The position numbers and the translations under genes were made by a program. Source: Candidatus Thorarchaeota archaeon (GTDB taxonomy: Archaea; Asgardarchaeota; Thorarchaeia; Thorarchaeales; Thorarchaeaceae). From it: a DNA stretch of 32,000 nt. Positions 3,393 through 32,000 of the stretch are shown piece after piece. The stretch covers positions 46,954-78,953 of the forward strand of contig PRDJ01000039.1 of the NCBI GenBank assembly GCA_003345555.1, written 5' to 3'. Each line of letters opens with the position of its first letter. Within the stretch, counting starts at the first letter, position 1. The notes beneath the pieces are model-generated. The model worked only from the letters and a program-made list of their open reading frames with translations, searched no databases and had not been told where the DNA came from.

Positions 3393-4796
3393 ATGCCTAA
3401 GAAGTTCGTGCCAAGAGGGATAATGCCAGCCCTCATAACGCCATTCGCGAAAGATGGCGAGATAATCGAACAGAGCTTTCGCGAGATTATCGATTACACA
3501 ATTAGCAAAGGAGCCGCCGGAGTCGTACCCGCTGGCACAACGGGCGAGTTCGTTTACATGAATATGGACGAGCGCAAGAAGCTTCTGAGTCTGACAACGG
3601 AATGCGTGAATGGTCGCGTTCCGATTATTGCAGGCACAGGTCAGAGCAGCACTGAAGCAGCTACTGAGCTGACGAAGTACGCGGCAGATATTGGATGCGA
3701 TGCAGCTTTGATCGTTTCTCCCTTCTATTTGAAACCGACTGACAAGGGCTACTACGAGCACTATGCCACTATCGCAAGAAAGAGTGACCTGCCTGTCATA
3801 ATGTATAATATTCCTCAGATGGGCGGTATGGGTGTCCTCCCTGTTAGCGTTGTGGAAGACCTAGCCGAACTGGACAATATCGTAGGCATCAAGGACAGCA
3901 GTGGTAACATAACCTACATGCTGGAACTACTGCAGAAGCTAAAAGGCCGCATTTCTGTGATAAATGGCAATGACGAGATCTTCTTCTCTGCAGTGACTGC
4001 GGGTGTGAACGCCGCAATCATGGCCTCAGCGAACTTGATGCCTCATCTTTGGAATGATCTTTTGAAGAAAGTCCGCAAAGGTGACATTGATGGAGCCCTC
4101 AAGCTTCAGCTCTCGATGCAGACTCTGACTCGAATTGTGACAAGGTATGGAGGTGCTCCGCCAGTCAGGGCAGCACTGAAGATGATGGGAATCGATTCGG
4201 GTAAAGCACGAATGCCACTTAACACAGGTGGGACGTTGACTCCCGAACTTAAGGAGGAAATAAGAGTCGAGCTGGAGAAGCTAGGGCTGATTGGGGGTTC
4301 AAAGCATGTTGGTCCAGCGAAAGAAGTCGACATTAATGGTGTCCTACTAGAGGCCGGATTGAGTGCCGAACAGCAACAAGCCCTCAAGGTCGGACGCGGA
4401 TCGAGTCAAGCTTGTACCGCCAGCGTCGTTTGTGGATCCAAGACCGGTCCCCTGGGATCAGCGTTTGTCCGATTGCTGACGACTCCGCGAATTGGACGCG
4501 AGGCACTATCAGTGATTCTTGAACCGAACTTGGCTGTCAGACCTTCCAGCCTAATGTTGCCGGGCAGAAAGATCAGCTCAATGCGTCAGGCGTCAGTGTT
4601 CTACGGTCCAGTGCAGTCCGGCGCTGCTAGAGCTGTTGCAGGTCACCTAGCTGCTGGCAAGATATCTCCTGACGCGGTTCAAAACAATGTCATGGTGATG
4701 GTGATCGATGTGGACTTGGATACAGTCGACAGAAGAGCAGTCACTGCCGCTACGGAGGTAGCGGTTTCCGCGGCTCTCAGTCAGATTTGGAGGTGA
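3393..4796 (+). CDS. DapA/NanA-family class I aldolase fused to a degenerate Fae (formaldehyde-activating enzyme)-like domain (copy A)
   Basis: N-terminal ~300 aa: PALITPF, GTTGE (3534-3548), VSPFY, MYNIP (Tyr133 equivalent), GIKDSSG with Schiff-base Lys codon AAG at 3891-3893; the DapA Arg138 position is Met. C-terminal ~140 aa (from ~4380) aligns to Fae (GSKTGPLGSAF, VILEPNLAVRPSSLMLP, FYGPVQSGAARAV) but lacks the AHIDL histidine, the FIHW histidine and the terminal HPF. Confidence 0.85.
   Translation: MPKKFVPRGIMPALITPFAKDGEIIEQSFREIIDYTISKGAAGVVPAGTTGEFVYMNMDERKKLLSLTTECVNGRVPIIAGTGQSSTEAATELTKYAADIGCDAALIVSPFYLKPTDKGYYEHYATIARKSDLPVIMYNIPQMGGMGVLPVSVVEDLAELDNIVGIKDSSGNITYMLELLQKLKGRISVINGNDEIFFSAVTAGVNAAIMASANLMPHLWNDLLKKVRKGDIDGALKLQLSMQTLTRIVTRYGGAPPVRAALKMMGIDSGKARMPLNTGGTLTPELKEEIRVELEKLGLIGGSKHVGPAKEVDINGVLLEAGLSAEQQQALKVGRGSSQACTASVVCGSKTGPLGSAFVRLLTTPRIGREALSVILEPNLAVRPSSLMLPGRKISSMRQASVFYGPVQSGAARAVAGHLAAGKISPDAVQNNVMVMVIDVDLDTVDRRAVTAATEVAVSAALSQIWR
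4789..4796 (+). promoter_or_regulatory. Shine-Dalgarno sequence for DapA-Fae copy B, overlapping the copy A stop codon
   Basis: Perfect archaeal SD GGAGGTGA, 6 nt upstream of an in-frame ACG at 4803. Confidence 0.6.
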
Positions 4797-4802
4797 GGAA
4801 AA

Positions 4803-6281
4803 ACGCCTGAAGGATCTTGGCGATTCAAAGGTGTGTACGCCGGACTAGTCACACCGTTTGGTGAGAACGGCGTCAATGAGGCACAATACCGCAATCTGAT
4901 TGAGCATGTTATCAAGGCAGGGGCAAACGGCATTGTTCCCTGCGCATCACTCGGCGAATTCACAAGTATGTCATTTGAGGAGAAAGCTGAAGCTATTCGA
5001 GTCGCATGCGACGCTGCGAAGGGACGGGTGCCGGTGCTTGCGGGTGCATGCGCGGCTTACACTGCCGACGTCGTCAAGCTGTATCTAAAGGCTGCCGAGT
5101 ACGGAGCTTCGGGGGCGTTGGTAGTCTCTCCGTATTTCATGAAGCCTTCCACAAAGGAAATCTATGAACACTATGAGAAGGTTGCGAACTCAGCTGGTCT
5201 CCCAGTATTCCTGTATAATTGTCCACAGTTCACTGGCGTGAACCTCGACTGGTGGCTGATCGAAGGTCTGCGCGAGATCAAGGGCATTATTGGGCTCAGC
5301 GATGCGAGCGGCAACTTGGTCAATGTCTCGCAGATACTCGCTCGTCGGCCAGAGGACTTTCAAGTTGTTGTTGGCCATGATGAAGTCGTTCTGCCGAGTA
5401 TGGCAGCAGGCTGCGATGGAGCTATCCTAGCAACTGCAAATATCTTCCCCGACAGATATGTAAGAATGGCGATTGCTCTAAGTCAAGGCGATCTCAAAGA
5501 GGCTAGACTCATTCAGCGTAGCGTTCAGAGAACCGCGAGAATCGTTGTCAACAAGGGCGGTCCTCTCGCTGTCAAGGCGGCCCTGAATATGATGGGCATC
5601 CCCGTCGGTTCTGCTCGAATGCCTCTCCTACAGGGCGATGTTCTGGGCTATGATGACTTAGATGAACTCAGGACACAGCTGGAAGACCTCCAGCTGATGC
5701 CTAGAGGGTCAGTCACCTACAGGGCGCATGGTCGATCCGTTGTTACGGATGCATATCCGAAGGCTGTGGGAATGAGCAAGGACATCATCGATGACCTCAC
5801 CCTCCTTCATGGAGAAGCTTTGTGTGGGGAGGGATTGGAAGTTGCTCATGTCGATCTGGTTGTGGGACTCAAGGATGGGCCTATGCAGGCTGCCTTGACC
5901 AACGCAGGTATCAAGACCGATGGCTTCCATATGTCCAACATCATCAAGGACCTTCGACCTACGACCGTATTTGCGCCCACGGTGACAATCACCGACGAAC
6001 ATCACAGCAGGCTCGTGTTCGAGTTCGCTCAGAAGGCCGTTGCTGACGCTGTGACAAGGACAATCACAGACCGGATGATTCCCGAGGAGCTTGTGCCAGA
6101 CCTAGTGATTGCTGTGAAAGTGTTCGTCCATCCCAATGCCAACAACCCAAGACGGGTACACATGAACAATTTCCGAGCCACGAGGTTTGCGATAAGGCGA
6201 GCTCTGGAAGGTCGACAATCTGTAGAGGAGGTAGTTGCCCGAAAGGACTCAGCTCGTCATCCATATGGCTACAATCCATGA
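4803..6281 (+). CDS. Catalytically altered DapA-family domain fused to an intact-looking Fae domain (copy B)
   Basis: DapA fold: KGVYAGLVTPF, ASLGE instead of GTTGE, LYNCP, GLSDASG with Ser codon AGC (5298-5300) at the Schiff-base Lys position. Fae domain from ~5796: GEALCGEGLEVAHVDLVVG (His codon 5847-5849), AQKAVADAV, VFVHP, RHPY. The track start (GTG 4833) falls inside the first beta-strand; ACG 4803 gives (M)PEGSWRFKGVY, matching copy A's MPKKFVPRGIM. Confidence 0.85.
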   Translation, partial: TPEGSWRFKGVYAGLVTPFGENGVNEAQYRNLIEHVIKAGANGIVPCASLGEFTSMSFEEKAEAIRVACDAAKGRVPVLAGACAAYTADVVKLYLKAAEYGASGALVVSPYFMKPSTKEIYEHYEKVANSAGLPVFLYNCPQFTGVNLDWWLIEGLREIKGIIGLSDASGNLVNVSQILARRPEDFQVVVGHDEVVLPSMAAGCDGAILATANIFPDRYVRMAIALSQGDLKEARLIQRSVQRTARIVVNKGGPLAVKAALNMMGIPVGSARMPLLQGDVLGYDDLDELRTQLEDLQLMPRGSVTYRAHGRSVVTDAYPKAVGMSKDIIDDLTLLHGEALCGEGLEVAHVDLVVGLKDGPMQAALTNAGIKTDGFHMSNIIKDLRPTTVFAPTVTITDEHHSRLVFEFAQKAVADAVTRTITDRMIPEELVPDLVIAVKVFVHPNANNPRRVHMNNFRATRFAIRRALEGRQSVEEVVARKDSARHPYGYNP

Positions 6282-12978: not shown

Positions 12979-13623
12979 TCACTTCATGCCAGCTATTTGC
13001 CTATCAAGATCCTCAAGCTGCGAATCCAGTTCGGCTTCCTTGGTCTTGTAGTCCTCTTCTGGAATGTATCCTCTCATGTAGTCAAAGCGCAAGTCAGTCA
13101 AGGCAGCCTTCAAACGATCCTTCTGTTGCAGAAGGAAGTCGAGTTGGTCGCTAGAACCTGCAGGCGCTGCTGGAGCTGGAGCAGGAGCTACCTTTGCTGC
13201 GGGTGCAGCAGGCGCTGACTTCGCTGGGGCCGGAGCTAGTGCCGATTTCGCGGGAGCGGGTGCTGGCGCAGGCTTTGGCGTAGGTGCTGGAGCTGCTTTT
13301 GGAGTTGCAGCAGCCTTCGGAGGAGCTGTCGGTGCAGCCCTCGGTGGCGCAGTCGGGGCAGCAGCCTCTGCCGACAATGAGCTTGGTTGTACTGCCTCCA
13401 TAGTCTCCATGTTACGCCTAAGAGTGTCAATCTGGTCAGCAATCTGAGTAAAGCTATCATTGATGGTCTGATTAATCGCGGTCTTCATCCTTGCCAAGTT
13501 CTCTGCCAGCTGATCGGCAAGCTTCTTTGTCTCCGCGACCTTGTTAGCAAAGCTTTCTATCGCCCTGAGCTTCTGGTTCAGCTCTTCCATTTGTCTTTGA
13601 ATAGCGCTAAAATCGAAGGCCAT
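12979..13623 (-). CDS. Coiled-coil / Pro-Ala linker / C-terminal helical hairpin (SHOCT- or steadiness-box-like) protein
   Basis: Heptad-rich N-terminus (aa 1-76), ~70-aa AP/PA-rich linker, C-terminal LTDLRFDYMRGYIPEEDYKTKEAEL. Confidence 0.8.
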   Translation of the reverse strand: MAFDFSAIQRQMEELNQKLRAIESFANKVAETKKLADQLAENLARMKTAINQTINDSFTQIADQIDTLRRNMETMEAVQPSSLSAEAAAPTAPPRAAPTAPPKAAATPKAAPAPTPKPAPAPAPAKSALAPAPAKSAPAAPAAKVAPAPAPAAPAGSSDQLDFLLQQKDRLKAALTDLRFDYMRGYIPEEDYKTKEAELDSQLEDLDRQIAGMK

Positions 13624-13720: not shown

Positions 13721-14578
13721 CTACGCAGGCACCGGTTTGGCTTCACCCTTTCCTTCAAGGATGGCTTTCCGGATGATTTGAATGAGGCGGTCTCTATAGG
13801 AGATGTCTATCGCGACGAGCTCGTAAGTGGCGATTCCGAGAATCTGGCCCACTCTCTCAGGAGTCAGAGCAGTGGGCAGGTCTTGCTTGTTGGCGATGCC
13901 AATTACCTTGGCTTCAGGAACCTCCTCTTTGACCAGAGACACCAACTTCTTGCTACGCAAAACGTTCTCAAGGGTACTATCGGTCACAATGATGACAACT
14001 TGGGCATTCGCTATCATCTTGGCCCAGAGGATACTAAACCGCGATTGACCCGCAAGGTCCCAGAGTACTATGTTCGCATTTTGGACTTCGTCCGGGAGCT
14101 TCTTTATCGATACACCGATTGTAGGATCATGTACCAGTGGAAGTGTCTCTCCCCTGAGCAGATGCAGTGTGGTGGTCTTGCCAACGCCTGCGTATCCAAG
14201 AATCGCCACCTTCACCATTGTCACTGCTATCTCGTCGACCTTTGCATCAAGACCTTCCAAGGGGAGGTTCGCTTCTGCAAGGGTTGCGAAGTCCTTTATG
14301 AAGGCATCAACTAGCTGCGTCATCCGCTCCTCTATCTGAGCTGTGTCGTCGGCCTTGTCGGCCACAAACATGAATACGAAGTCGCGTCGAGCAGCATAGA
14401 ATATCCTTGTCCCTGAGAAACCCATGTACTCTGTCTTTCCCTCCAGGTCAACTGAGGAAATGAAATGAGCGAAATTCACTAGGAACTCAACCAGTCCCTC
14501 TCCTGATTCGCTCTTGGCGTATTCTTTGGAATATATGACATTGCTCTGTTGTCCAAGTATGTATAGGCTTCTAATCAT
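13721..14578 (-). CDS. Longin-domain::small GTPase (Arf/Rab-like) fusion
   Basis: N-terminal longin fold (MIRSLYILGQQSNVIYSKEY, as in sigma/mu adaptin N-termini); G1 GYAGVGKT, G2 PTIG, G3 WDLAGQ, G4 NKQD. ATG 14578 overlaps the upstream TGA (ATGA coupling). Confidence 0.9.
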   Translation of the reverse strand: MIRSLYILGQQSNVIYSKEYAKSESGEGLVEFLVNFAHFISSVDLEGKTEYMGFSGTRIFYAARRDFVFMFVADKADDTAQIEERMTQLVDAFIKDFATLAEANLPLEGLDAKVDEIAVTMVKVAILGYAGVGKTTTLHLLRGETLPLVHDPTIGVSIKKLPDEVQNANIVLWDLAGQSRFSILWAKMIANAQVVIIVTDSTLENVLRSKKLVSLVKEEVPEAKVIGIANKQDLPTALTPERVGQILGIATYELVAIDISYRDRLIQIIRKAILEGKGEAKPVPA

Positions 14579-15684
14579 TGCTCGCCACTCCACTTCTCGG
14601 CAAGTATCTCAAGATGTCTTCTGGCAATCTCAGGGGTTATCTCGTCGTTAGACAGCTTATCTGCTATCAGCGGCAGAACAAACTCTGGGATAAATGATTC
14701 CATGATTGGGTTGGTCACCAAAGCCCAGATTCCTTCTCCGATTTGTGCCGCAACATTTTCAGACTCTAAGCTGAATAGCGCGTTTTGAACGATTTCTTCC
14801 TGAAGCAGCGTTCTGTTCGATATCTCTCTCACTGAAAGCGGCTCATCTCGCAGAGAAGTTAGGACCTTGTATTCGATCTTCTTGGAAAGCACTCTCGCGA
14901 TCTTTTCCCTGTCTTCGACCAGCGGTGAATTGGGGTCGTCGCTGGGTATCGTGGGGTTGTATCCTCGGCTCGGAGGTGGCGGTGCGAAGAACTCAGCAAC
15001 TCGCTGTTGGTACTGAGCGGCGAGCCCGGGCATGGATTTCCTAGCTTTCGTGATGGCTTCAACTGGCGGGGCCCTGTAGGCAAATACGTCCTTTACTAGA
15101 AACACGGCCTCGATGCCTTTTCCTATGATTTCGACGTTGACGATACCAGAGTCCATCAAAGGTAAGATGGACTCCCGCAAATCCACGGAGTCGCTCTGGA
15201 CTTGGCTCTTGAGCCAAATCGAGAGCTTCGCAGCTCTCTCGACTCCTTCGTTCTCAATCTTTTCAAGTACCAATCCTGATGATGGTGTCAGGAATATCTG
15301 GGCATATCTCTGTTCTTCGCTAGCTTCCCCTAGGCTGCTGTGGCTCTCGAGTATCTCATCAAGGTGAACCAGCTCAGGATTCTCGACCATGAGCTCAATT
15401 ATCAGTCTCCCCATCCCTGGTATTTCTTCCTTAAGCCCTTCATAGTCCTCGTCAGCGGTCAAGACGAAGCATGCCATCCAGCGGGGACGCGCTCTGTCTA
15501 CAAAGGAGACTATCCGCACGTTGTCGATTTCACTGTACCTTAAGTTCTCCTTCTCTTCCTTCTCATGTTCATAGAATATCAAGTTCAGGATCTTCTCGTT
15601 CAGCGAGAAAGAGAAGGGATGTCTCTTCTCGACAACAAAACCTTGGTAGTCGTCTAGGTGGACCACGAATATTGCTTGTGGCAT
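14575..15684 (-). CDS. uDENN/longin-like N-terminal domain plus two winged-helix-like domains (NPRL2/FLCN-like architecture)
   Basis: N-terminal AIFVVHLDDYQGFVVEKRHP matches the uDENN pattern (hydrophobic strand-D-x-x-x-G-x-x-x-x-x-x-P); HTH-like segments DLRESILPLMDSGIV and PLSVREISNRTLLQEEIVQNALFSLESENV. ATG 15684; GTG 15693 is an alternative. Confidence 0.7.
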   Translation of the reverse strand: MPQAIFVVHLDDYQGFVVEKRHPFSFSLNEKILNLIFYEHEKEEKENLRYSEIDNVRIVSFVDRARPRWMACFVLTADEDYEGLKEEIPGMGRLIIELMVENPELVHLDEILESHSSLGEASEEQRYAQIFLTPSSGLVLEKIENEGVERAAKLSIWLKSQVQSDSVDLRESILPLMDSGIVNVEIIGKGIEAVFLVKDVFAYRAPPVEAITKARKSMPGLAAQYQQRVAEFFAPPPPSRGYNPTIPSDDPNSPLVEDREKIARVLSKKIEYKVLTSLRDEPLSVREISNRTLLQEEIVQNALFSLESENVAAQIGEGIWALVTNPIMESFIPEFVLPLIADKLSNDEITPEIARRHLEILAEKWSGEQ

Positions 15685-23309: not shown

Positions 23310-23765
23310 GCGACTCCCTGATCAGCCTGCTGGTGAACTCAGAGGTCGTCGCCGGCAACTCACTTTCCGGCCCATTGGCTTGGATAGTCGTGCCATGTGC
23401 AAGTCTTTGATTCCAACACCTTAAGCTTATCAATAAAGAACGCAGATGAACGACCGTCTTGCCAAGCGCGTCGCGATATGGCTGACTGCACGACAATCGC
23501 GAAATCGCGTGCTCCAACGATTCTGCCGCACGGAGGGCTTTGGTGATTTGAATCCGAAGTCACGGTTCTGCAAGTGGTCAACCGCCGCATGTGTCGGATG
23601 GCCAAAAAAAGGAACGGCTTTGCGACCAAACGAATGGCTTTGTACGGAATTGCTTATTATGCGAAGCCAAACAACTGGGCGTCATTCCGAAGTGAGCCGG
23701 TCAGGCCGTCTGATAGCTATCCCGTATCCATCCATCGTAGGGAACGATGCTGGAGGTAGTGATTG

Positions 23766-26700
23766 ATGAAGAGAATTAGCACCTCTTTGATAGTCATGTT
23801 CGTGATGTTGCTCTTTACAGGTGTGGGTTTTGCGGGTACTCCCGTTGCACTAAGTTCTGGATCTCAGCCCAGTCTGGTTGACCAGAGTCTCGACGCGGCC
23901 GGGCAGGGTGCGTACACCGGCACCGGCGCAGCACGCACTGCCACACTGAAAGGCATGACAAGCAACGTGACTGGAGTTACGAATCTTGACTCCACCGGGA
24001 CAGCAACGACCAAGGTGCTCCGCCCGACGGGTTGGACAGGGACCAATCTGAGGACAGACATCAAAGGGCTGAGGGCATGGTACTACAACGTCCTTAGGAA
24101 CGGCAACTTCTCGACATACCACGATGAGATATACACCGAGCGGGGCGGCGAAGACCAGATTTCATTCCCTGATTATTGGCGCCTTCACAAGTACGATGCG
24201 CATGGAAGTCAGAACGCTACAAGCGGATACCTATATTTCTCCGTAGAGGGCACAGATCCAGATTATTACTGGCGCATGGTGATTGACGATTCTCCTCCCG
24301 ACGCAGGCGAATACCTGTCTCTCTCCCAAGAACTGAAGCTGCCATACATGGCAATCGAAGAGATGCAAATCACCGTCTCATTCAGACCTGATTACTGGGG
24401 AGGCACATACAATAACTCATTCATGTTCATCAAGGTAGGAACGTATCAGATCTCAGATTACTGTTTCAGGAGTACGGACACTTTTGGTGCGAGACTATTG
24501 AGGACATACACTGTACCGGGTTCATACTTGTCTTCTCTTACTTGTCCAACTGCTGTGAATTTCGAGATAGGACACAAAGTCAAAACTGGCGTGAGTAGCG
24601 GATGGTATGGAGCCATTCTTGACATCATGTATGTCACTGTGGATATCAAGGTAAGGCCGCTCCCTGACAGAATAAACATGAAAGCCAACTCAACCGCGAT
24701 ACTAGATGCAACAACTGGCAGCGGAGGTCCATACAAGGTACCTCTGGCTCAATACATCGCTGGGGTCTCGAGCCGAGATGGGTACAACATAGGCTCAAGC
24801 ACGTTCGATATAAATGGGTATTCAGATGATGGCCACCTTTTCGTCGGTTATGCTCCAAACTGGGGTGGTGTCGGCCGAATGGGTCTTCAGATGCAGGTTT
24901 ACGTCCCGAAGGGTGCCATCATTACGAGTGCAACCCTTACTCTTACTGGCGCAGACTACTCCGGGTCGCCCACCTATCCAGCTAGATTACTAGTTGACGT
25001 GGCAGATCGTTCCAATTCCGCCACATTCACACAGGGCGGGACCACAATCCTGTCACAATCGACTTGGATGAATAACCCCGTGGTTTGGCAATTCTCGAGT
25101 TTCAGTGGCGGGACGAAGTACACTTCACCAGACATCTCAGCTCTACTTCAAAGAGTTGTATCGAACAGCACATGGGCCAGTGGTAACTATGTCGTCCTGA
25201 TGGTGTCTGGAGCGTATTTCGGCGGCGAGACGGTGGACGCCGGTCTTAACTTCTATGGTACTGCGGCCGGAGTGGATGCGAATGTTGGATATCTCACCAT
25301 GACCTGGCTTGTTCCGTCAAGCACGACAGAGCAGACCAAGTATACGAGCACGGGCTCTTGGTCAAGCACCAGCTCCGTATCATTGAGCTTTCAGTCAAAC
25401 GCAACCGACGTTTCGTTCAGCTCGAACATGTACTTGAACGCCTCTATCATTGTAATCTCTCTAGACAACAATCTAAATCCCGGCACAACATTCAGTGTGG
25501 CCAACAACACTGTCATGACTTGGACAGCCAATGTACTGGTATCACCGCCGGTGGGTGTGGGCTACACTAACATCTCTTTGAGCAAACCGGCAACTTCTTG
25601 GACCCTCTCAAGTGTTACCGATGCTGATGGTTCTACTCGAACGTCAGAAGTTACTATAACCTCAAATGCGGTGCAAGTCAAATCATCGGTGGTTGATGTA
25701 TTTGGAATATGGAAGTTCGTTTTCACGGCCGACCAGCAGTTAGCCAGCCCGTATCTGCAATGTGGAATCAATGGTGGTAGCTACGCCAACACCTACACAT
25801 ACTATGTGGGGAACTCGGCCTCTTTCATCAGTTGGGCTCCATATTTGTCCACCAATGCAGAGCGTCTTTTGCTTACTGCCCCCAGCGGTCAGCTTTTCTA
25901 TGCCGTAGACGATCTTACGCAATCAGTTAACAGTCCATACCCCTTTGAATGGACTGGAATCACTGTCACGAGTGCATGGCCGGCCGGGGTCTGGTACGCT
26001 GATGTGAACTTCAACAACACCAAAGGTGCCGTTCCTTCGGTTGTGGGTAGAGCAACGCGCAGTTTCACGGTCATACATGCGACGAGCCTGAGTCTAATAT
26101 CGCCTGCCACTCAAATTACGAGTAGGATTGCAGGTAACTTGCTCTACGTTCAGGTAAAACTCACCGACACAGACAACTCGGCTCTCGTAAGCGGTGCAAC
26201 TGTTACTATGAACTGGACGAGTCCGAGCACTGTGACTCTTGACGACTGTGGCAACGGTTACTACGAGAAGACATTGAACACTACTGACTTGGGCACTGCC
26301 AAGAGATGGAGAATTGATCTGTCCGCCTCCAAATCATACTACTCTGGTTCGTTAACTTACTTCAATTTGGACTTGACCCATTCAACGTTCTTGACCTATC
26401 AGACTCCAGCATCCGCACCCTACGGAGACGACTTCAGGGTCAAGGTGACGCTCTACAACGCTTTCACCAAGACGACAGTACCCGGCGCTACTATCACATC
26501 CAACGGCACCTTCTTTGGCTCGCCCACAGATCACGGTAACGGCAGTTACACGGTCACATTCGAGACTTCCGGCCTAGGTGTGGGTGACTATCTGTATCGG
26601 ATTATTGCGACTCCAGCCAGCGCGTATATTCTGGCAAGCAATGTGACCATCAGGTTCACCCTGCGCAATGTCTACACTACCACGTACGGCGTGGGCGGCA

Positions 26701-29700
26701 GTTCGGTCTCAACACCTTACTCGATAAGCACATCCAAGATAATAACGTATAACGATACTGACCACGCGTTTGCAGGAATAGCCGGAGCATCGAATTCGGT
26801 TCAGAGCCCGACCGGCGTCATAACTACCGTGTCTGATTCTGGTGGAGGCAAGTACACAGTAAGCATCAATGTTGGTACCAAGACTGTCGGAACGTACTTG
26901 ATCAACATCACGCTGTCCAAGTCGAATTACTACAGCAGCACAATTCGGATCTCTCTGACTATTACGGCGCGTATCACGAGCGTTGTCTGCAAATATACTA
27001 ACATTGTTCCCTACGGGTCCAACTCCCCGTTCACTGTTACTTGGTATGACATTGACGGCGGAGGAGCAAACATCTCAGGTGTAGTGGCCATAAGCAGCAT
27101 CACTGTCAATGGTACGTCCTATGGAAGCAATCCTAGTTTTGCATACGTTTGTAGTAGCCTCTCTGTGCGGAGCTATGTACTGAACGTTACTGTAAACTCC
27201 GGCAATACCGGTTACAAGAGCTCATGGCAGATTGTGACTCTCACGGTCCGAAGCTTGGGCATCTATATCTACAATGAACCCAGTGATCTTGTGTTTCCAA
27301 GCGGTGACGATTTCGTCATTGTCATTCGCGTCAACATTAGCGAACCGGGCAATCAGTTCAACAAGCAGCCGATAAGCAACCTTACTGCTGCTCAGTTCAC
27401 AATCTCGAACTCTACGTACACGTTCCCCAAGACGATTACAGCGCTCGGAAACGGTAGGTACAACCTTACGATAAGTCACACCTATCTGAACATGAATGCA
27501 TACACAATCACCATACTTCTGACTCCAAGTAATTCGAGATTCGCTAGCGCGTCTGTGCAGATATCATTCAGCTACAGGGCGGCCAGAAGCTACCTTTCAT
27601 CACCAAACTATCCTTACATTATCACACCATACGGGACATCGGTCGTAGTCACACTCAACTTCACCGATGTGGACCGCAACAAGGGTATCACAACAGCTGA
27701 CATCACTGCTACGGGCATCTCGATATACGGAAAGACGAACGTCGGCAATGGCATCTATAGAGTGACGCTCAATGTCACTGGTTTAGCTAAGGGAGATCAT
27801 CAGTTCAACCTGAAAGCAACTGCATCACAATATCAGTCGCAGAATCTAACGTTCACTCTAACGGTCAGGATTGTCTTCACGTCTGTTATTCCAACGGTTG
27901 GTTCTCTTGACATACCCGTCGGCAACAGCCCCGTCTTCTATGTGAGGTTCTGGGACCAAGACAATAACCTGCCCATAGCGGGCGCCACAATGACCAGCAC
28001 TTGGATTAGGAGCTTGACAGTTACATACATACCAGCAGATCAAAGATACAGCGTTACTTTCGCAACTCTCGACACGGACATACTGAGATCCAACTATGTA
28101 GTAACCTTCAACTTCTCGAAGGGTGTCAACTATCAGCTCGGTATCTTCAATGTCACGATTACTATTCGAACTCACAATACTGACTTTCGACTTGTGAGCG
28201 CCGTACAACCATCATCCTATAACGGTATCATCAACGTATCAGTGTACTACGGTGACCTCGATAACAATGCAGGAATAAGGTCAAGTTATGTCCATCACAA
28301 AGTGATCAACTCAACGGGTTCTGTAAGCTCAACTTTGTACAATGATACGGTCTTAGGAGCTGGCTTCTACATAATCAGGATTCCAGCGTCTCAGTTTGCC
28401 GGTCTAGGTCTTCGGACTTTCACAATCTACTTCAACTGGACAGGTTCTGTCTACAAGTACCTCAATAAGACCTTGTCGACAAGCGTCAATCTTGTAGGTA
28501 CTGATTCCAAATATACGTTGCTTGTGGCAGCCGAGCCGACAGCATATCTCAACAACATGAGCTACATGTTCCTCTATGCTCAACTCAGCGGTATCGGCAT
28601 TGACAACAGTTCCGGCAACGTTCATATCAGGGTCGCATTCCAAGGTGAATCCGTAGACCTGTCGAGAGTCAAGATTTGGTGGGTGGCGGGCGGGAACTAC
28701 TCTATCCGCTTCAACACAACGGTGTTCACTCATACCGGTCTCATATACATGACTGTATACGTCAACTGGACCAAGGGTGCGGTGCCGTTCTACACAAACC
28801 GCACCGATGTGATTTCTGTTCGCATTCTCCCGCGAGACACACTTGTGTCCGTCATCCCACCATCGCCCACATCATGGGGCCAGAACGCAACGTTCACGTT
28901 TGCTTATGAGGATGTAACTGGAGGCGGCAGTGTACCCATCCCCTACAACGTTAAGATGACAATCAAGCTGAGCCTATCTAGCTACACACTCACCTACAGC
29001 AGCGCGACCAAGTTATTCACGGTGTCGTTCAATTGCAGTCAATCTCCGATAGGTCTCGCGCCTCTTGGTTCGAAATCCTTCATACTGAATGTCACCTGGG
29101 CTGGGTCGCCGTTTTACAACAACCGGACAGGTCAGTCGATCAGCATAACGGTGCTTGCTCGGCAGACGGTCTTGGACTATCAGACTCCTGCCCCGACATC
29201 GTATTCCGACAATGTAACATTCGTCGTGAGTTGGTTTGACGTAACTACTGGTTCTTCTGTGGGAATCAATGGAGCAACAGTAACGCTCTATGATGGTGCG
29301 GTTCCAGTGTCCGCGAGCAAGTACAAGGTCACGCCGCTCGGAGGAGGCAGCTACTCCATTCAGCTGAACACGACCTACAAGTCGTCTCCTGGTACCTACG
29401 CTTTGAAGGTGATCCTCGACAAGTCTCTGTTCTACCTTCCGGCTGCCAACTCCACAAGGCAGTTCAGCATCATCTGGCGCATAACGCTTCTTTCATCAGA
29501 ACCTGTTGATCAAGTACCCTACAACTCGTCGATCCAGGTCAGAATCCACTATCAAGACTTGCTGAGATTGACCTCAATCGGGAATGGTTCAGGCTACACT
29601 TCAATCAAGATACTCAACGGGACAAGTTGGCTGTTCACGAGTTCTTGGCAATCCGCGTTTGACTACTACCTTCTTACGATTCAAACCTACAATCAAGCCG

Positions 29701-32000
29701 GGCTCAAGCTTGGAACCGTATACACTCTACATCTCAACATGACCTACGCGAGTCTATCTCCATTCTATCGTTGGGATGATGCTTACATAACATTCCAGCT
29801 GCGCCCGCGGACAACAAGCCTCAGTGCCTCCTCGCCGTCTTCTACACCGTATCTCGACTATGCCAACTTCACTGTCACCTACTTGGACACAGATGCTGGT
29901 GGGAAAGGAATCGGGTCTGCTACCATTTCAATAAAGAAGAACGGCACACTTCTGACACCCGGTTCACAGTACTTGGCTGTTCAGACTTTGCCTGGTGTGT
30001 GGGCCATCTCGGTGAACTCCACAGCCCTGAATGCCCTGACCACGACTAGGATTGATGTCTATGCGACCTGGTTCGGAACGCCGTACTACGCCAACAACTC
30101 AAGGTCTGTTGACATCACGGTCATTCGGAGACCGACGGCAGTTGATGTTGTGACGCCGCCATCGCTCACGCGGTATCTCGACAATGTCACATTTACAATC
30201 GGTTTCTCGGACGTCGAAAGAGGCAGCTACATCGGTAGCATAATCAACAACATCCTCATTTACAATGGTACGAAATACCTCACTTCGAGTCAGTATAAGG
30301 TGGTAACGGGTTCTGTTGCAGGCACCTTTGACATAAGGATTAACTCGACGATTCTGAGTGCTCACTTACTTACCAACTATCAGATAACAGTGAAAGTGTA
30401 CTGGCTCAACATACCGTACTACGCAAATGCAACAATCTCTGTGCGCTTAACAACTACGAACAGAGCTGGGGCGCTTACTTGGGACCAGATTGATAACACT
30501 CCCATGGGTGACCTCCTGAACCTGACGTTCTACTACAAGGATCTCGATACAGGTCTAGGAATAGCAAACGCAATTGTTCAGTTCGACTGTGTCCAGAAAC
30601 CGGGTCTACAAGTGGGGATTGACTATACGCTCGTGAAAGGGACTGGCGTAGATACCGGTACATACTACATCCGCGTCAACACAAACAGGCTCCTTGGGAT
30701 TAGGAGCTACAACTTCCTATTGACTGTACTATGGAACGCAGCAAATGCTCCTTTCTACACTAATCAAACTACTAGGAACATCGGCGGCGCAGTCAGAGCG
30801 ATTTCAGCTTCGCTCACACCCGGGACTCCGACGCCTCTTCTTGTACCCTACTACGGCAACGTGTCGGTCGATGTTACATATTATGACAATGATCACTTGC
30901 GTGCAATCACCAACGTTGTCAAGACCAATGTGACTGTAACATACGGGTCCGGCAGTGGACCGATAGCTTGGGGGTTCGCAAACCTAGGCGGTGGTGTGTA
31001 CAGGATCACTGTAAACACTTCCGACTCGGGACCCTACGGCTCGAAGACACTGCAAATAGCTTTCAACCGGTACCCGTACACTGCACAACTGACGAGTGTT
31101 CCGTTTACCACCCGATTGAGGAATATGCAGGCGGCCGCTACTGTTCCTACTGACCTCTATGCGGGCGATCCTTCGTACGTGACTGTCAATATCAGCGACA
31201 GTGATTCTGTCAAGCAGTTGGCAGGTGTAACGCTGGTCATCACATGGGAATCGACTTCGTCTTGGATTTATATCGGTTCGGGGCTGTACAACGTATCTTT
31301 CGGCACGACCGGAATCCCGGCAGGTTCTGCGACAATGGAAATACAAGCGACCAAAGCCAACTATACTACCCAGCTGCTGATTCTTAGCATTTACCTCAAG
31401 CCCATACCGATAGAAGTTGTAGTCCCGCCCGCGATTGATGGCATGTCAGTGTATTGGAACAAGAAATTTGTGATTTACGTCTTCATCAACGACACCTTCC
31501 ACGACATGCTGGTGTCGGGAGCCACAGTAACCTATGTGTTTGGAGGTCACTCTGGGAGCCTGACGGAGACTTCAAGTGGTAACTACAGCGCGACCCTTGA
31601 TACTTTCTGGGTGTCTCCAGGAACTGAGGTCATTTCAATTCAAGCAACGAAGAACAACTATGCTATCGCCGGTACCCTCATTCCGGTGAACGTTGAGAGA
31701 ATCCCCACAACCCTGACAACACCCATCTACTCGTCAAGCCAGCACCGAGGTTCTCCTTGGAACATTAGTGTGTACTTCAACGACACGTACAACAATCAAC
31801 CGGTCACTGGCGCGACAGTGACAATATCATGGTTCTACCTAACCTCCGAAAGTGGTACCATGACCTCTCTCGGCGGGGGGTGGTACACCTTCAACCTTCC
31901 GACGGAGAACGCTTCAATTGGACAGAACTATGTGATTAATGTGAACGCCATCAAGACGAACTACCAGACTTCTTACACTTCACTATACCTTTCGGTCTCA
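23766..32000 (+). CDS. Giant secreted cell-surface protein with tandem Ig-like beta-sandwich repeats (3'-truncated, >=2745 aa)
   Basis: SD GGAGGT at 23752-23757; signal peptide MKRISTSLIVMFVMLLFTGVGFAG. The frame is still in register at the window end (...SLYLSVS) and the track lists no stop-terminated ORF in this frame. Thr/Ser/Tyr/Asn-rich with many N-x-S/T sequons; recurring ~100-aa unit containing (D/N)xG(N/G)GxY. Confidence 0.9.
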   Translation, partial: MKRISTSLIVMFVMLLFTGVGFAGTPVALSSGSQPSLVDQSLDAAGQGAYTGTGAARTATLKGMTSNVTGVTNLDSTGTATTKVLRPTGWTGTNLRTDIKGLRAWYYNVLRNGNFSTYHDEIYTERGGEDQISFPDYWRLHKYDAHGSQNATSGYLYFSVEGTDPDYYWRMVIDDSPPDAGEYLSLSQELKLPYMAIEEMQITVSFRPDYWGGTYNNSFMFIKVGTYQISDYCFRSTDTFGARLLRTYTVPGSYLSSLTCPTAVNFEIGHKVKTGVSSGWYGAILDIMYVTVDIKVRPLPDRINMKANSTAILDATTGSGGPYKVPLAQYIAGVSSRDGYNIGSSTFDINGYSDDGHLFVGYAPNWGGVGRMGLQMQVYVPKGAIITSATLTLTGADYSGSPTYPARLLVDVADRSNSATFTQGGTTILSQSTWMNNPVVWQFSSFSGGTKYTSPDISALLQRVVSNSTWASGNYVVLMVSGAYFGGETVDAGLNFYGTAAGVDANVGYLTMTWLVPSSTTEQTKYTSTGSWSSTSSVSLSFQSNATDVSFSSNMYLNASIIVISLDNNLNPGTTFSVANNTVMTWTANVLVSPPVGVGYTNISLSKPATSWTLSSVTDADGSTRTSEVTITSNAVQVKSSVVDVFGIWKFVFTADQQLASPYLQCGINGGSYANTYTYYVGNSASFISWAPYLSTNAERLLLTAPSGQLFYAVDDLTQSVNSPYPFEWTGITVTSAWPAGVWYADVNFNNTKGAVPSVVGRATRSFTVIHATSLSLISPATQITSRIAGNLLYVQVKLTDTDNSALVSGATVTMNWTSPSTVTLDDCGNGYYEKTLNTTDLGTAKRWRIDLSASKSYYSGSLTYFNLDLTHSTFLTYQTPASAPYGDDFRVKVTLYNAFTKTTVPGATITSNGTFFGSPTDHGNGSYTVTFETSGLGVGDYLYRIIATPASAYILASNVTIRFTLRNVYTTTYGVGGSSVSTPYSISTSKIITYNDTDHAFAGIAGASNSVQSPTGVITTVSDSGGGKYTVSINVGTKTVGTYLINITLSKSNYYSSTIRISLTITARITSVVCKYTNIVPYGSNSPFTVTWYDIDGGGANISGVVAISSITVNGTSYGSNPSFAYVCSSLSVRSYVLNVTVNSGNTGYKSSWQIVTLTVRSLGIYIYNEPSDLVFPSGDDFVIVIRVNISEPGNQFNKQPISNLTAAQFTISNSTYTFPKTITALGNGRYNLTISHTYLNMNAYTITILLTPSNSRFASASVQISFSYRAARSYLSSPNYPYIITPYGTSVVVTLNFTDVDRNKGITTADITATGISIYGKTNVGNGIYRVTLNVTGLAKGDHQFNLKATASQYQSQNLTFTLTVRIVFTSVIPTVGSLDIPVGNSPVFYVRFWDQDNNLPIAGATMTSTWIRSLTVTYIPADQRYSVTFATLDTDILRSNYVVTFNFSKGVNYQLGIFNVTITIRTHNTDFRLVSAVQPSSYNGIINVSVYYGDLDNNAGIRSSYVHHKVINSTGSVSSTLYNDTVLGAGFYIIRIPASQFAGLGLRTFTIYFNWTGSVYKYLNKTLSTSVNLVGTDSKYTLLVAAEPTAYLNNMSYMFLYAQLSGIGIDNSSGNVHIRVAFQGESVDLSRVKIWWVAGGNYSIRFNTTVFTHTGLIYMTVYVNWTKGAVPFYTNRTDVISVRILPRDTLVSVIPPSPTSWGQNATFTFAYEDVTGGGSVPIPYNVKMTIKLSLSSYTLTYSSATKLFTVSFNCSQSPIGLAPLGSKSFILNVTWAGSPFYNNRTGQSISITVLARQTVLDYQTPAPTSYSDNVTFVVSWFDVTTGSSVGINGATVTLYDGAVPVSASKYKVTPLGGGSYSIQLNTTYKSSPGTYALKVILDKSLFYLPAANSTRQFSIIWRITLLSSEPVDQVPYNSSIQVRIHYQDLLRLTSIGNGSGYTSIKILNGTSWLFTSSWQSAFDYYLLTIQTYNQAGLKLGTVYTLHLNMTYASLSPFYRWDDAYITFQLRPRTTSLSASSPSSTPYLDYANFTVTYLDTDAGGKGIGSATISIKKNGTLLTPGSQYLAVQTLPGVWAISVNSTALNALTTTRIDVYATWFGTPYYANNSRSVDITVIRRPTAVDVVTPPSLTRYLDNVTFTIGFSDVERGSYIGSIINNILIYNGTKYLTSSQYKVVTGSVAGTFDIRINSTILSAHLLTNYQITVKVYWLNIPYYANATISVRLTTTNRAGALTWDQIDNTPMGDLLNLTFYYKDLDTGLGIANAIVQFDCVQKPGLQVGIDYTLVKGTGVDTGTYYIRVNTNRLLGIRSYNFLLTVLWNAANAPFYTNQTTRNIGGAVRAISASLTPGTPTPLLVPYYGNVSVDVTYYDNDHLRAITNVVKTNVTVTYGSGSGPIAWGFANLGGGVYRITVNTSDSGPYGSKTLQIAFNRYPYTAQLTSVPFTTRLRNMQAAATVPTDLYAGDPSYVTVNISDSDSVKQLAGVTLVITWESTSSWIYIGSGLYNVSFGTTGIPAGSATMEIQATKANYTTQLLILSIYLKPIPIEVVVPPAIDGMSVYWNKKFVIYVFINDTFHDMLVSGATVTYVFGGHSGSLTETSSGNYSATLDTFWVSPGTEVISIQATKNNYAIAGTLIPVNVERIPTTLTTPIYSSSQHRGSPWNISVYFNDTYNNQPVTGATVTISWFYLTSESGTMTSLGGGWYTFNLPTENASIGQNYVINVNAIKTNYQTSYTSLYLSVS

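Follow-up and report, generated by a model that had tools for sequence, protein, structure and literature searches.

A conserved tandem pair of DHDPS–Fae fusion proteins in Thorarchaeota as a candidate two-subunit enzyme with a divided Fae site

Two adjacent genes of the window, which is the whole 32,000-nucleotide stretch of Thorarchaeota DNA that was analysed, encode fusions of a DHDPS-type barrel with a C-terminal Fae-like domain (proteins A and B), and these two proteins probably constitute one two-subunit enzyme. The explanation that best accounts for the data as a whole, which we put forward tentatively, is that A and B are subunits of a conserved hetero-oligomeric enzyme with a split Fae site and with aldolase activity through Lys167 of A. 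Judged by the residues of A and B, the label 4-hydroxy-tetrahydrodipicolinate synthase (DapA), under which public databases list both proteins, is unsupported.

Gene organization and conservation of the pair

The two ORFs lie on the same strand, and each of them is real according to the ORF list of the window. As the initial annotation had proposed for both genes, with coordinates that were correct throughout, profile searches matched the Pfam DHDPS model (PF00701) along the entire (beta/alpha)8 barrel of both proteins, at 260.7 bits in A and 226.3 bits in B against a gathering score of 22.1, and the Fae model (PF08714, cut-off 27) at 83.4 and 120.2 bits, respectively. TIGR03126 (Fae) scored above its cut-off of 118.05 in B (132.3 bits) and below it in A (72 bits). 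Weaker matches were obtained with NanA, KdgD, HpaI-like and KDG aldolase models. Residues were assigned by aligning the proteins with PDB 1Y5Y and with 229 orthologues (119 of A and 110 clusters of B). The features are listed in Table 1.

Table 1. Features of the A/B locus (window coordinates)
Feature	Position	Strand	Basis
Gene A: DHDPS-type class I aldolase barrel plus C-terminally truncated Fae-like half-domain	3393..4796	+	ORF, 467 aa; Pfam; 119 full-length orthologues
A: DHDPS barrel, aa 8-278, with GTTGE and the Tyr133 and Tyr107 equivalents	3414..4226	+	Pfam, orthologue alignment
A: substrate-entrance loop QMGGMG, Met143 at the DapA Arg138 position	3816..3833	+	Alignment; complex model
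A: Schiff-base Lys167	3891..3893	+	Alignment; Lys invariant (119/119)
A: Fae-like half-domain, aa 335-463	4395..4781	+	Pfam, 1Y5Y and orthologue alignments
A/B junction: GGAGG Shine-Dalgarno running into the TGA stop of A (4794-4796), then ACG (4803-4805)	4789..4805	+	Sequence, relatives
Gene B: DHDPS-like pseudo-aldolase barrel plus Fae half-domain with catalytic motifs	4833..6281	+	ORF from GTG, 482 aa; Pfam; TIGR03126
B: DHDPS-like barrel, aa 4-267, decayed active site	4842..5633	+	Alignment
B: Ser156 replacing the Schiff-base Lys	5298..5300	+	Alignment; Lys kept by 106/110 B clusters
B: Fae domain, aa 327-478, canonical PNL loop shortened by 5 residues	5811..6266	+	1Y5Y and orthologue alignments
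B: Fae His339 (AHVDL)	5847..5849	+	Alignment
B: Fae His433 (FVHP)	6129..6131	+	Alignment
B: RHPY tail	6255..6266	+	Alignment

In the tree, the fusion family was monophyletic with respect to stand-alone DHDPS (100/99), and A (93/84), B (94/99) and the single-copy forms (95/83) each made up a clade. The A/B pair is the product of one ancient duplication, kept in tandem across Thorarchaeota and other archaea. A and B are spaced by 5-6 nucleotides in Thorarchaeota relatives, and they overlap or lie 18 nucleotides apart in distant archaeal lineages. Among 26 sampled relatives of the family, two Fae-domain matches were found in 24, a single one in one and none in one; the pair was the source of the only Fae-domain matches in the sampled Thorarchaeota genomes, and no high-scoring canonical Fae or Fae-Hps was found in this sampled family. 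The fusion family is widespread in Asgard archaea and is also present in at least one archaeal lineage labelled Korarchaeota. Its single-copy forms reach 180-208 bits on the Fae model, and in Lokiarchaeial genomes the fusion is present together with canonical Fae-Hps.

Against a relative 84-85% identical, dN/dS was 0.02-0.05 in all four domains (about 0.05 in the B barrel), ratios that are approximate because dS is saturated (1.6-3.6). By this measure all four domains are under purifying selection. In Thorarchaeota, the neighbours of the pair (an unknown 814-aa protein upstream and an ArgE/DapE-family deacylase downstream) reflect synteny only, and a protein of about 320 aa without Pfam match, which adjoins the fusion genes in three non-Thorarchaeota loci, is absent from the genome of the window. 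Conserved neighbours were thus rejected as a pathway clue; gene neighbourhoods vary between lineages and name no pathway.

The start of B differs from that of its relatives, which have ATG where only the window has ACG. Read from this ancestral position B would comprise 492 aa; because the ancestral ATG reads ACG here, the listed ORF begins 10 codons later at GTG. The GGAGG motif, located at the stop codon of A and 5-9 nucleotides upstream of ACG, is placed so as to allow coupled re-initiation of B, and the expression level of B is uncertain given the ACG start. Read-through of TGA into a single A-B chain was also considered: the two genes are in the same frame in the window and in L010, and in a different frame in L011. 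B contains no frameshift and no internal stop.

Fae-like domains and aldolase barrels

In the pentameric Fae of Methylobacterium extorquens (PDB 1Y5Y/1Y60), the active site lies between subunits. The Fae-like domain of A keeps the central block (K, G, F, the PNL loop and GP) and is devoid of His22, Asp24, the FIHW His and the RHPF tail: ACTASV replaces VAHIDL, VIDV replaces FIHW, and the domain ends about 23 residues early. This degeneration is ancient and universal (119/119). B has the opposite set, and its motifs, His22 and Asp24 among them, show about 100% conservation in the orthologues. The initial annotation had listed correctly both the missing motifs of A (AHIDL His, FIHW His and C-terminal HPF) and those retained by B (AHVDL, FVHP His and RHPY), but it took the domain of A to have lost its activity, whereas the alignments present it as a complementary half with the central block missing from B. 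Five canonical Asgard Fae domains share 78 invariant columns, of which 23 are retained in A, 33 in B and only nine in both; the columns kept only by A form the central block, and those kept only by B form the N- and C-terminal motifs. Neither A nor B alone holds the complete Fae residue set, while all motifs are united on a single chain in the single-copy Lokiarchaeial fusions. A Fae site split between the two subunits is therefore rather likely by alignment, and with domains so complementary a working Fae-type site would need both chains.

The barrel of A is by its residues a competent class I site, since Lys167, Tyr138 and Thr49/Thr50 (GTTGE) are each found in all 119 orthologues, in agreement with the initial description of GTTGE, the Tyr133 equivalent and the Schiff-base Lys in A. 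That of B, for which ASLGE and the Ser in place of Lys had been noted as well, shows in addition GAC for GTG, YNCP, Phe133, and Phe102 at the Tyr107 position; with S156 and ASLGE it does not have the residues of competent members of the DHDPS/NAL superfamily. In DHDPS dimers, Tyr107 reaches into the active site of the partner. At this position 107/119 A sequences have Tyr and 108/110 B sequences have Phe, which makes the barrels asymmetric; in a heterodimer, B would give Phe, not Tyr, to the active site of A, and this counts against the explanation that we favour. The substrate-entrance loop of A has a one-residue insertion only in the species group of the window (the A consensus is QCTLG), and A residues 143-146 fall in the A:B interface of the complex model.

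In DapA, Arg138 binds the carboxylate of aspartate semialdehyde. As initially annotated, A has Met and B has Phe at the equivalent position, and Arg occurs in none of the 229 orthologues (Cys, Met or Val in A; Val, Leu or Phe in B); such neutral residues fit an aldehyde substrate without a carboxylate. Both proteins scored above the cut-off of TIGR00674 (dapA; 222.3 and 221.9 bits against 206.15), which explains the database label, and the solved structures nearest to the A barrel are true DHDPS enzymes. DapA/DHDPS (TIGR00674; PDB 1DHP, 3PUD, 2YXG) is indeed the closest sequence family, with the same barrel fold and tight-dimer surface, and A shares the equivalents of GTTGE, Tyr133, Tyr107 and Lys161. 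However, it is exceedingly improbable that both proteins serve lysine biosynthesis as DapA enzymes with an additional domain. The position of Arg138 is occupied by Cys, Val, Met or Phe in the orthologues, B has no Schiff-base Lys in this clade, both proteins carry the added Fae-like domain, and dapB (TIGR00036) was not found in the genome, whose completeness is about 93% (93.5%), so that this absence from an incomplete assembly is not proof. The scores just above the cut-off (222 against 206 bits) are outweighed by the missing Arg138 and dapB; the DapA annotation was rejected on these two grounds, of which the initial annotation had pointed to the first.

The replacement of Lys in B is of limited extent. 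Lys is lost in 4/110 B clusters; the Lys-less form is present in two of the three genomes of this genus, Ser occurs only in the clade of the window and in G157, and B of G120, of the same genus, keeps Lys. By this distribution, the loss of Lys in B is recent and narrow, and ancestral B combined an aldolase site with the Fae motifs, given Lys in 106/110 clusters. The initial annotation had each copy keeping one activity after the duplication and had named a strain-specific Ser in B as evidence against this; the exchange is in fact restricted to one species group within a single genus, and the Fae loss of A is universal but the Lys of B is mostly retained. Neither is the anti-correlation between loss of Lys and loss of His a family-wide rule, because in lineage L012 the Schiff-base Lys is absent from both partners. 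We therefore rejected reciprocal loss as a rule for the family. L012 still has the tandem and the B-type Fae motifs, so Schiff-base aldol chemistry is not indispensable to the pair.

The Lys-less B form comprises at least five sequences, 83-86% identical in protein, with dN/dS of about 0.04. Within this clade, 17/139 conserved barrel columns of B have changed versus 1/60 Fae columns (Fisher p = 0.015), and the changed columns include GTTGE, GTG, YNIP, K161 and S163. In A of the same clade, six of the seven clade-specific changes affect predicted interface or substrate-loop residues. The loss of Lys in B thus goes along with decay of its entire aldolase pocket and with an altered substrate loop in A.

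Association of A and B and genome context

The A:B complex model scored 0.72 and the best of three controls 0.00; this mark is reached by 58/80 solved complexes and 2/110 mismatched pairs, counts that are rough here, own alignments having been used. Runs agreed in at least 94% of contacts, with pLDDT of at least 88 for the partner. The predicted interface corresponds to the DHDPS tight-dimer surface, and for this reason the result may reflect likeness to solved DHDPS homodimers. No contacts between the Fae-like domains were named by the 1:1 model, in which unnamed residues are simply uncertain and beyond which a higher-order ring would lie. The model thus favours a DHDPS-type A:B dimer, in keeping with the A/B complex suggested initially, and together with the conserved tandem and its short spacing in relatives it speaks for the proposed coupling of A and B. 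We consider it likely that the two proteins form a heteromer.

With regard to C1 carriers, the initial annotation had pointed to H4MPT genes, of which mch was present and mtd and ftr were not found, so that the set is incomplete. A Mer-like protein scored below the cut-off, and RFAP synthase was not found in this genome either, nor was Hps by tblastn with two Asgard Hps parts as queries. Accordingly, the usual cofactor of Fae and its usual source of formaldehyde are not evident, and the genome contains a folate-type C1 cluster (Fhs-FolD-FTCD). Ftr was found in 19/27 genomes of the family and in 0/3 of this genus; a tie between its loss and that of Lys in B was not supported, since G120 B keeps Lys.

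PanB uses a methylene-pterin as formaldehyde donor. PanB was not detected in the genome of the window, and the pair was considered as a substitute for this ketopantoate hydroxymethyltransferase. This was rejected because canonical PanB coexists with the pair in 25/26 sampled genomes of the family.

Proposed reaction, alternatives and related systems

In the proposed mechanism, A and B would pair through the classical DHDPS tight-dimer interface, B supplying His22/Asp24, FxH and RHPF, and A the K/G/F/PNL/GP block that is deleted in B. In the species group of the window, only the A barrel retains a Schiff-base lysine, and the B barrel would be a selected, non-catalytic scaffold. A 2-oxo acid, probably pyruvate, would form a Schiff base on Lys167 of A and would react reversibly with a small uncharged aldehyde, in the simplest case formaldehyde, in an aldol reaction giving 4-hydroxy-2-oxobutanoate (HOB). 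The composite Fae site would then pass formaldehyde to or from a reduced pterin, a carrier that may be folate-like here because the H4MPT genes are incomplete. This formaldehyde/pyruvate chemistry is possible, if doubtful, and slightly more doubtful still is that the pair is a natural, dedicated pyruvate-formaldehyde (HOB) aldolase physically coupled to a Fae site split over two subunits.

The pair might instead be selected only for activation or detoxification of formaldehyde on a pterin carrier, with barrels that serve mainly as an oligomerisation scaffold and an aldolase that is accessory or unrelated. The persistence of the tandem and of the B-type Fae motifs in L012 agrees with this, as do the purifying selection on the B barrel of the window clade in spite of its lost active site, and the lack of other Fae-domain matches in the sampled Thorarchaeota family. 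We nevertheless regard it as unlikely, since a mere scaffold would have no need of Lys, GTTGE and Tyr133 in every A orthologue, nor of Lys in nearly all B clusters, and since the coexistence with canonical Fae-Hps in Lokiarchaeial genomes indicates that the fusion is more than a spare Fae. A different chemistry, in which the barrel acts on another 4-hydroxy-2-oxo acid or aldehyde (glycolaldehyde, glyoxylate, acetaldehyde or a deoxy sugar acid) and the Fae-like module binds a pterin or other ligand for regulation or condenses a different aldehyde, would suit the many pyruvate-dependent lyases of the DHDPS/NAL superfamily, the incomplete H4MPT genes of this genome and the uninformative neighbourhoods; it also seems unlikely to us in view of the near-complete conservation of the B-type motifs and of the Fae scores of the single-copy forms, which argue that the Fae-type chemistry is real and the domain not purely regulatory.

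Decay of B into a pseudogene in this organism, with A acting alone or as a homodimer, could account for the change of ATG to ACG in the window and for the loss of Lys161, Thr44/45 and other pocket residues. It is highly improbable, however, given an intact frame, a Lys-less form shared by several sequences under constraint with a single conserved Fae column changed, and a strong GGAGG suited to re-initiation; moreover, A without Fae catalytic motifs cannot replace B.

The two-subunit enzyme that we favour resembles Fae-Hps (NF009833) of methanogens and many Asgard archaea, 5,6,7,8-tetrahydromethanopterin hydro-lyase / 3-hexulose-6-phosphate synthase, in which Fae is likewise fused to a carbon-carbon lyase able to release or consume formaldehyde and which follows the same logic of an aldol-type formaldehyde reaction coupled to pterin capture. 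Its model matches B at 110 bits over the Fae part only, with no Hps domain. The partner of Fae is an OMP-decarboxylase-type Hps in Fae-Hps and a class I DHDPS-type barrel in A/B, where moreover the domains come in the opposite order, Fae being C-terminal, and the Fae site is apparently divided between two paralogous proteins. In other Asgard families Fae-Hps occurs together with the DHDPS fusion; in the genome of the window no Hps was found. With respect to the Fae of M. extorquens AM1 (1Y5Y/1Y60), B aligns over residues 8-168 with His22, Asp24, FxH and the HPF tail, and A over the central part; that enzyme stands alone, whereas A and B are fused to barrels, neither has the complete conserved set, and the cofactor context is doubtful here.

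Escherichia coli RhmA has a promiscuous HOB aldolase activity that was used in the synthetic homoserine cycle; a review of this work terms HOB a 'non-native metabolite' (PMC8879981). Its reaction (pyruvate + formaldehyde <-> HOB) is the one that we propose for A/B, although RhmA is a promiscuous class II metal-dependent aldolase without pterin coupling and A/B would operate with a Schiff base and a pterin. The literature searches yielded no publication on a fusion of DHDPS with Fae.

Irrespective of its chemistry, the pair illustrates stepwise subfunctionalisation cleanly, in the order of a single complete fusion, a split Fae site and the loss of one aldolase site, with both lost elsewhere, and its variants are ready-made natural mutants for biochemistry. 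If A/B is a dedicated coupled aldolase, it would represent an undescribed route by which Asgard and other anaerobic archaea connect pterin-bound C1 units with C3/C4 metabolism, and the species group of the window would be a natural 'half-dead' variant in which one aldolase site per heterodimer suffices. Coupling of a formaldehyde aldol reaction to a pterin carrier would give the synthetic homoserine-cycle step a counterpart in nature and would change metabolic reconstructions of these archaea, in which the presence of a lysine pathway would prove to be over-called and the handling of formaldehyde and C1 units under-called.

Architecture and ancestry of the tandem genes

Genes A and B (see table) both encode a DHDPS barrel followed by a C-terminal Fae-like domain. 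Pfam profiles matched both domains in each protein, with 261 and 226 bits for DHDPS and 83 and 120 bits for Fae in A and B, respectively. With the NCBIfam Fae model, the C-terminal domain of B reached 132 bits, above the cut-off of 118, and that of A 72, below it. Identity between A and B is about 28% over the pairwise alignment.

Residues were assigned by alignment to M. extorquens Fae (PDB 1Y5Y) and to 229 full-length orthologues. The barrel of A carries GTTGE, the Tyr133 equivalent and Lys167 (3891-3893), and its Fae-like domain lacks His22/Asp24 and the FxH histidine, the chain stopping before RHPF. In B, the barrel shows ASLGE and Ser156 (5298-5300), and AHVDL, FVHP and RHPY of the Fae domain are all intact. 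The domains and residues described in the initial annotation were thus confirmed throughout; its interpretation, a heteromeric formaldehyde-channelling aldolase, was supported only in part.

Homologues carry the names Thorarchaeota or Promethearchaeota, and A-type (about 465 aa) as well as B-type (about 491 aa) proteins are found across the Thorarchaeota family. Among 26 sampled relatives, 24 have two Fae-domain matches, one has a single match and one has none. Relatives keep the order A then B, 5-6 nt apart, and an A-like to B-like tandem is also found in one Korarchaeota-labelled and three other distant lineages; in Lokiarchaeial genomes the fusion is single-copy and about 500 aa long. Maximum-likelihood analysis separated the fusion family as a monophyletic group from stand-alone DHDPS (100/99), and A, B and single-copy forms were each set apart by one branch (93/84, 94/99 and 95/83, respectively), which indicates that the pair stems from one old duplication. 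We found no paper describing a DHDPS-Fae fusion.

Coordinates of the features discussed (window positions unless a contig or locus is named)
Feature	Position (strand)	Description
Gene A	3393-4796	467 aa; same strand as B
Gene B	4833-6281	482 aa; same strand as A, adjacent
Upstream neighbour	397-2841	814-aa protein immediately upstream of gene A; unmatched in Pfam and NCBIfam
Small GTPase and adjoining coiled-coil protein	13721-14593 (-) and 12979-13623 (-)	Arf/Ras family, N-terminal extension of about 125 aa
Giant ORF	23763-32000	>2745 aa; runs past the window end
Neighbour of DHDPS-Fae genes	L025:1625-2593 (-), L028:1039-2058 (-), L029:840-1787 (+)	about 320 aa; 68-77% identical; no Pfam match
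Lys-less pair of GCA_003560875.1	L012:4544-7449	A-like and B-like partners
Third DHDPS-family gene	C12 35884-36735 (L003)	stand-alone; same genome as the window
C1-gene cluster	C1 54864-60492 (L033)	same genome as the window

Distribution of the active sites over A and B

Five canonical Asgard Fae(-Hps) domains share 78 invariant columns, which we took as reference for the Fae site. Of these, 23 are conserved in A-types and 33 in B-types, with only 9 common to both. A alone retains the central block (Lys, Gly, Phe, the PNL loop and GP), and B alone GEAL-G, AHxDL, VT, the FxH Phe, RA and HP; a five-residue deletion in B falls exactly at the PNL loop. Lokiarchaeial single-copy proteins carry all Fae motifs together with GTTGE, Tyr107 and Lys on one chain. 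Fae forms homopentamers in which H4MPT binds between adjacent subunits, and its PDB entries have five chains each; complementary decay would therefore be expected were A and B to alternate around one common site. Judged by these patterns, the Fae site looks divided over the two proteins rather than simply lost in A.

On the aldolase side, GTTGE, Tyr133 and Lys are present in 119/119 A-types. Among B-types, Lys is retained in 106 of 110 clusters, the four exceptions being the window and relatives 83-86% identical to it. Within the genus, Ser also occurs in one genome (G157, 85% identical) but Lys is kept in another (G120, 74% identical), so that the loss in B is a recent event inside one genus; a strain-specific Ser in B was counted in the initial annotation as evidence against its own reading. 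The Lys position did not change alone. All four members of the Lys-less clade differ at 17 of 139 barrel columns of B that are conserved elsewhere, against 1 of 60 columns in the Fae domain (Fisher p = 0.015); the altered barrel positions include GTTGE, the GTG motif, YNIP, the Arg138 position, K161 and S163. A shows just seven clade-specific changes, six of them in predicted A:B interface residues, among them an added residue in the substrate-entrance loop (QCTLG to QMGGMG).

Decay of B was considered as an alternative. In relatives B begins with an ATG located six bases past the stop of A, behind GGAGG; in the window this ancestral start is ACG (4803-4805), and ATG stands there behind the same GGAGG in the close relatives L010 and G157 and the distant L011. 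B may be started from ACG by coupled re-initiation or from GTG 4833, or may be produced weakly. Its ORF has no frameshift or internal stop, and all four domains of A and B are still under purifying selection (dN 0.07-0.10 against L010; dN/dS 0.02-0.05, approximate since dS is saturated). In 4794-4835 the two genes share one reading frame, with only the TGA of A and 12 sense codons between them, as in L010 and not in L011; read-through, conceivable though not conserved, would yield one A-B chain of about 960 aa.

Association of A and B and candidate reactions

Full-length A and B were modelled as a two-chain complex with custom alignments and three controls. The A:B model scored 0.72, against 0.00 for the best control. 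Among solved complexes 58 of 80 attain that mark, and among mismatched pairs 2 of 110; because of the custom alignments these counts apply only roughly here. Runs shared at least 94% of contacts, with partner pLDDT of at least 88, and the predicted interface comprises the DHDPS tight-dimer surface and the C-terminal tail of B against A. The modelling proposed in the initial annotation favours association, but the score does not separate the heterodimer from homodimers, and the pass may reflect likeness to solved DHDPS homodimers. In DHDPS dimers, Tyr107 reaches into the partner's active site; its equivalent is Tyr in 107/119 A proteins, but 108/110 B proteins have Phe there. Taken with genes that nearly abut or overlap in lineage after lineage, the complementary Fae halves, this Tyr/Phe asymmetry and the interface-focused co-changes, the model indicates that A and B probably form a heteromer.

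The reading with most support is an enzyme of two subunits, A and B, from a conserved but unstudied family; its Fae-type site would be split between them, its barrels are of the DHDPS type, and in the window's species group the barrel of A alone would be catalytic. It might perform a reversible aldol reaction of pyruvate with formaldehyde, coupled to methylene-pterin, a rather doubtful proposal drawn from the Fae-Hps analogy, the domain fusion and the neutral residue that replaces Arg138 (Met in A, Phe in B). The presumed product, 4-hydroxy-2-oxobutanoate, has been called a 'non-native metabolite' whose sole source is a class II aldolase acting promiscuously in a synthetic pathway (PMC8879981), and another aldehyde or oxo acid was considered as substrate. 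A true DapA was also weighed: both proteins pass the NCBIfam dapA equivalog cut-off, though barely (222 vs 206 bits), and dapB was not found in the 93%-complete, 2.28-Mb genome. A Fae-only function, considered as well, would leave the barrels as scaffold. In the pair of GCA_003560875.1, from one other lineage, the Schiff-base Lys is gone from both partners (Ala in the A-like, Leu in the B-like protein) and the B-like Fae motifs are intact, showing that the barrel can persist without Schiff-base chemistry; Lys is nonetheless invariant in the 119 A-types. A RibD_C-domain gene lies directly upstream of that pair.

Genomic setting and C1 metabolism

The H4MPT pathway on which the initial annotation relied was recovered in part: the window's genome has Mch and a Mer-like protein scoring below cut-off, and no Mtd, Ftr, RFAP synthase or Hps was found in it. 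Ftr occurs in 19 of 27 genomes of the family and 0/3 of the genus, and RFAP synthase exceeds its cut-off in only 1 of 27. None of the 26 sampled relatives has a high-scoring canonical Fae or Fae-Hps, but the majority of the other Asgard families do, frequently together with the single-copy fusion. A RuBisCO-like large-subunit gene is clustered with formate-tetrahydrofolate ligase (Fhs), FolD and formimidoyltransferase-cyclodeaminase (FTCD); the Fhs-FolD-FTCD genes suggest that C1 metabolism here is of the folate type, and the carrier of the Fae-like site may be a folate-like pterin.

The 814-aa protein has a counterpart of equal length at the equivalent position of two further Thorarchaeota loci (L010, L011). 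Synteny of this protein and of a neighbouring ArgE/DapE-family deacylase holds among Thorarchaeota but does not extend across lineages, and neither gene indicates a pathway. The protein of about 320 aa accompanies DHDPS-Fae genes at three non-Thorarchaeota Asgard loci, and tblastn found no homologue in the window's genome. For the third DHDPS-family gene, models of KdgD (5-dehydro-4-deoxyglucarate dehydratase) gave the best matches, though below their cut-offs. PanB (ketopantoate hydroxymethyltransferase) was not detected in this genome, possibly through an assembly gap; replacement of PanB by the pair was rejected because 25 of 26 sampled family genomes have it. Elsewhere in the window, the giant ORF had no Pfam match at E <= 1e-4, and the small GTPase and coiled-coil genes, the latter with sub-threshold CdvA and Mis12 matches, are eukaryote-like content typical of Asgard archaea.

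The A/B family is a variant within the known aldolase/lyase-Fae kind, to which the window adds the lineage-specific pseudo-aldolase state of B and the matching changes in A.
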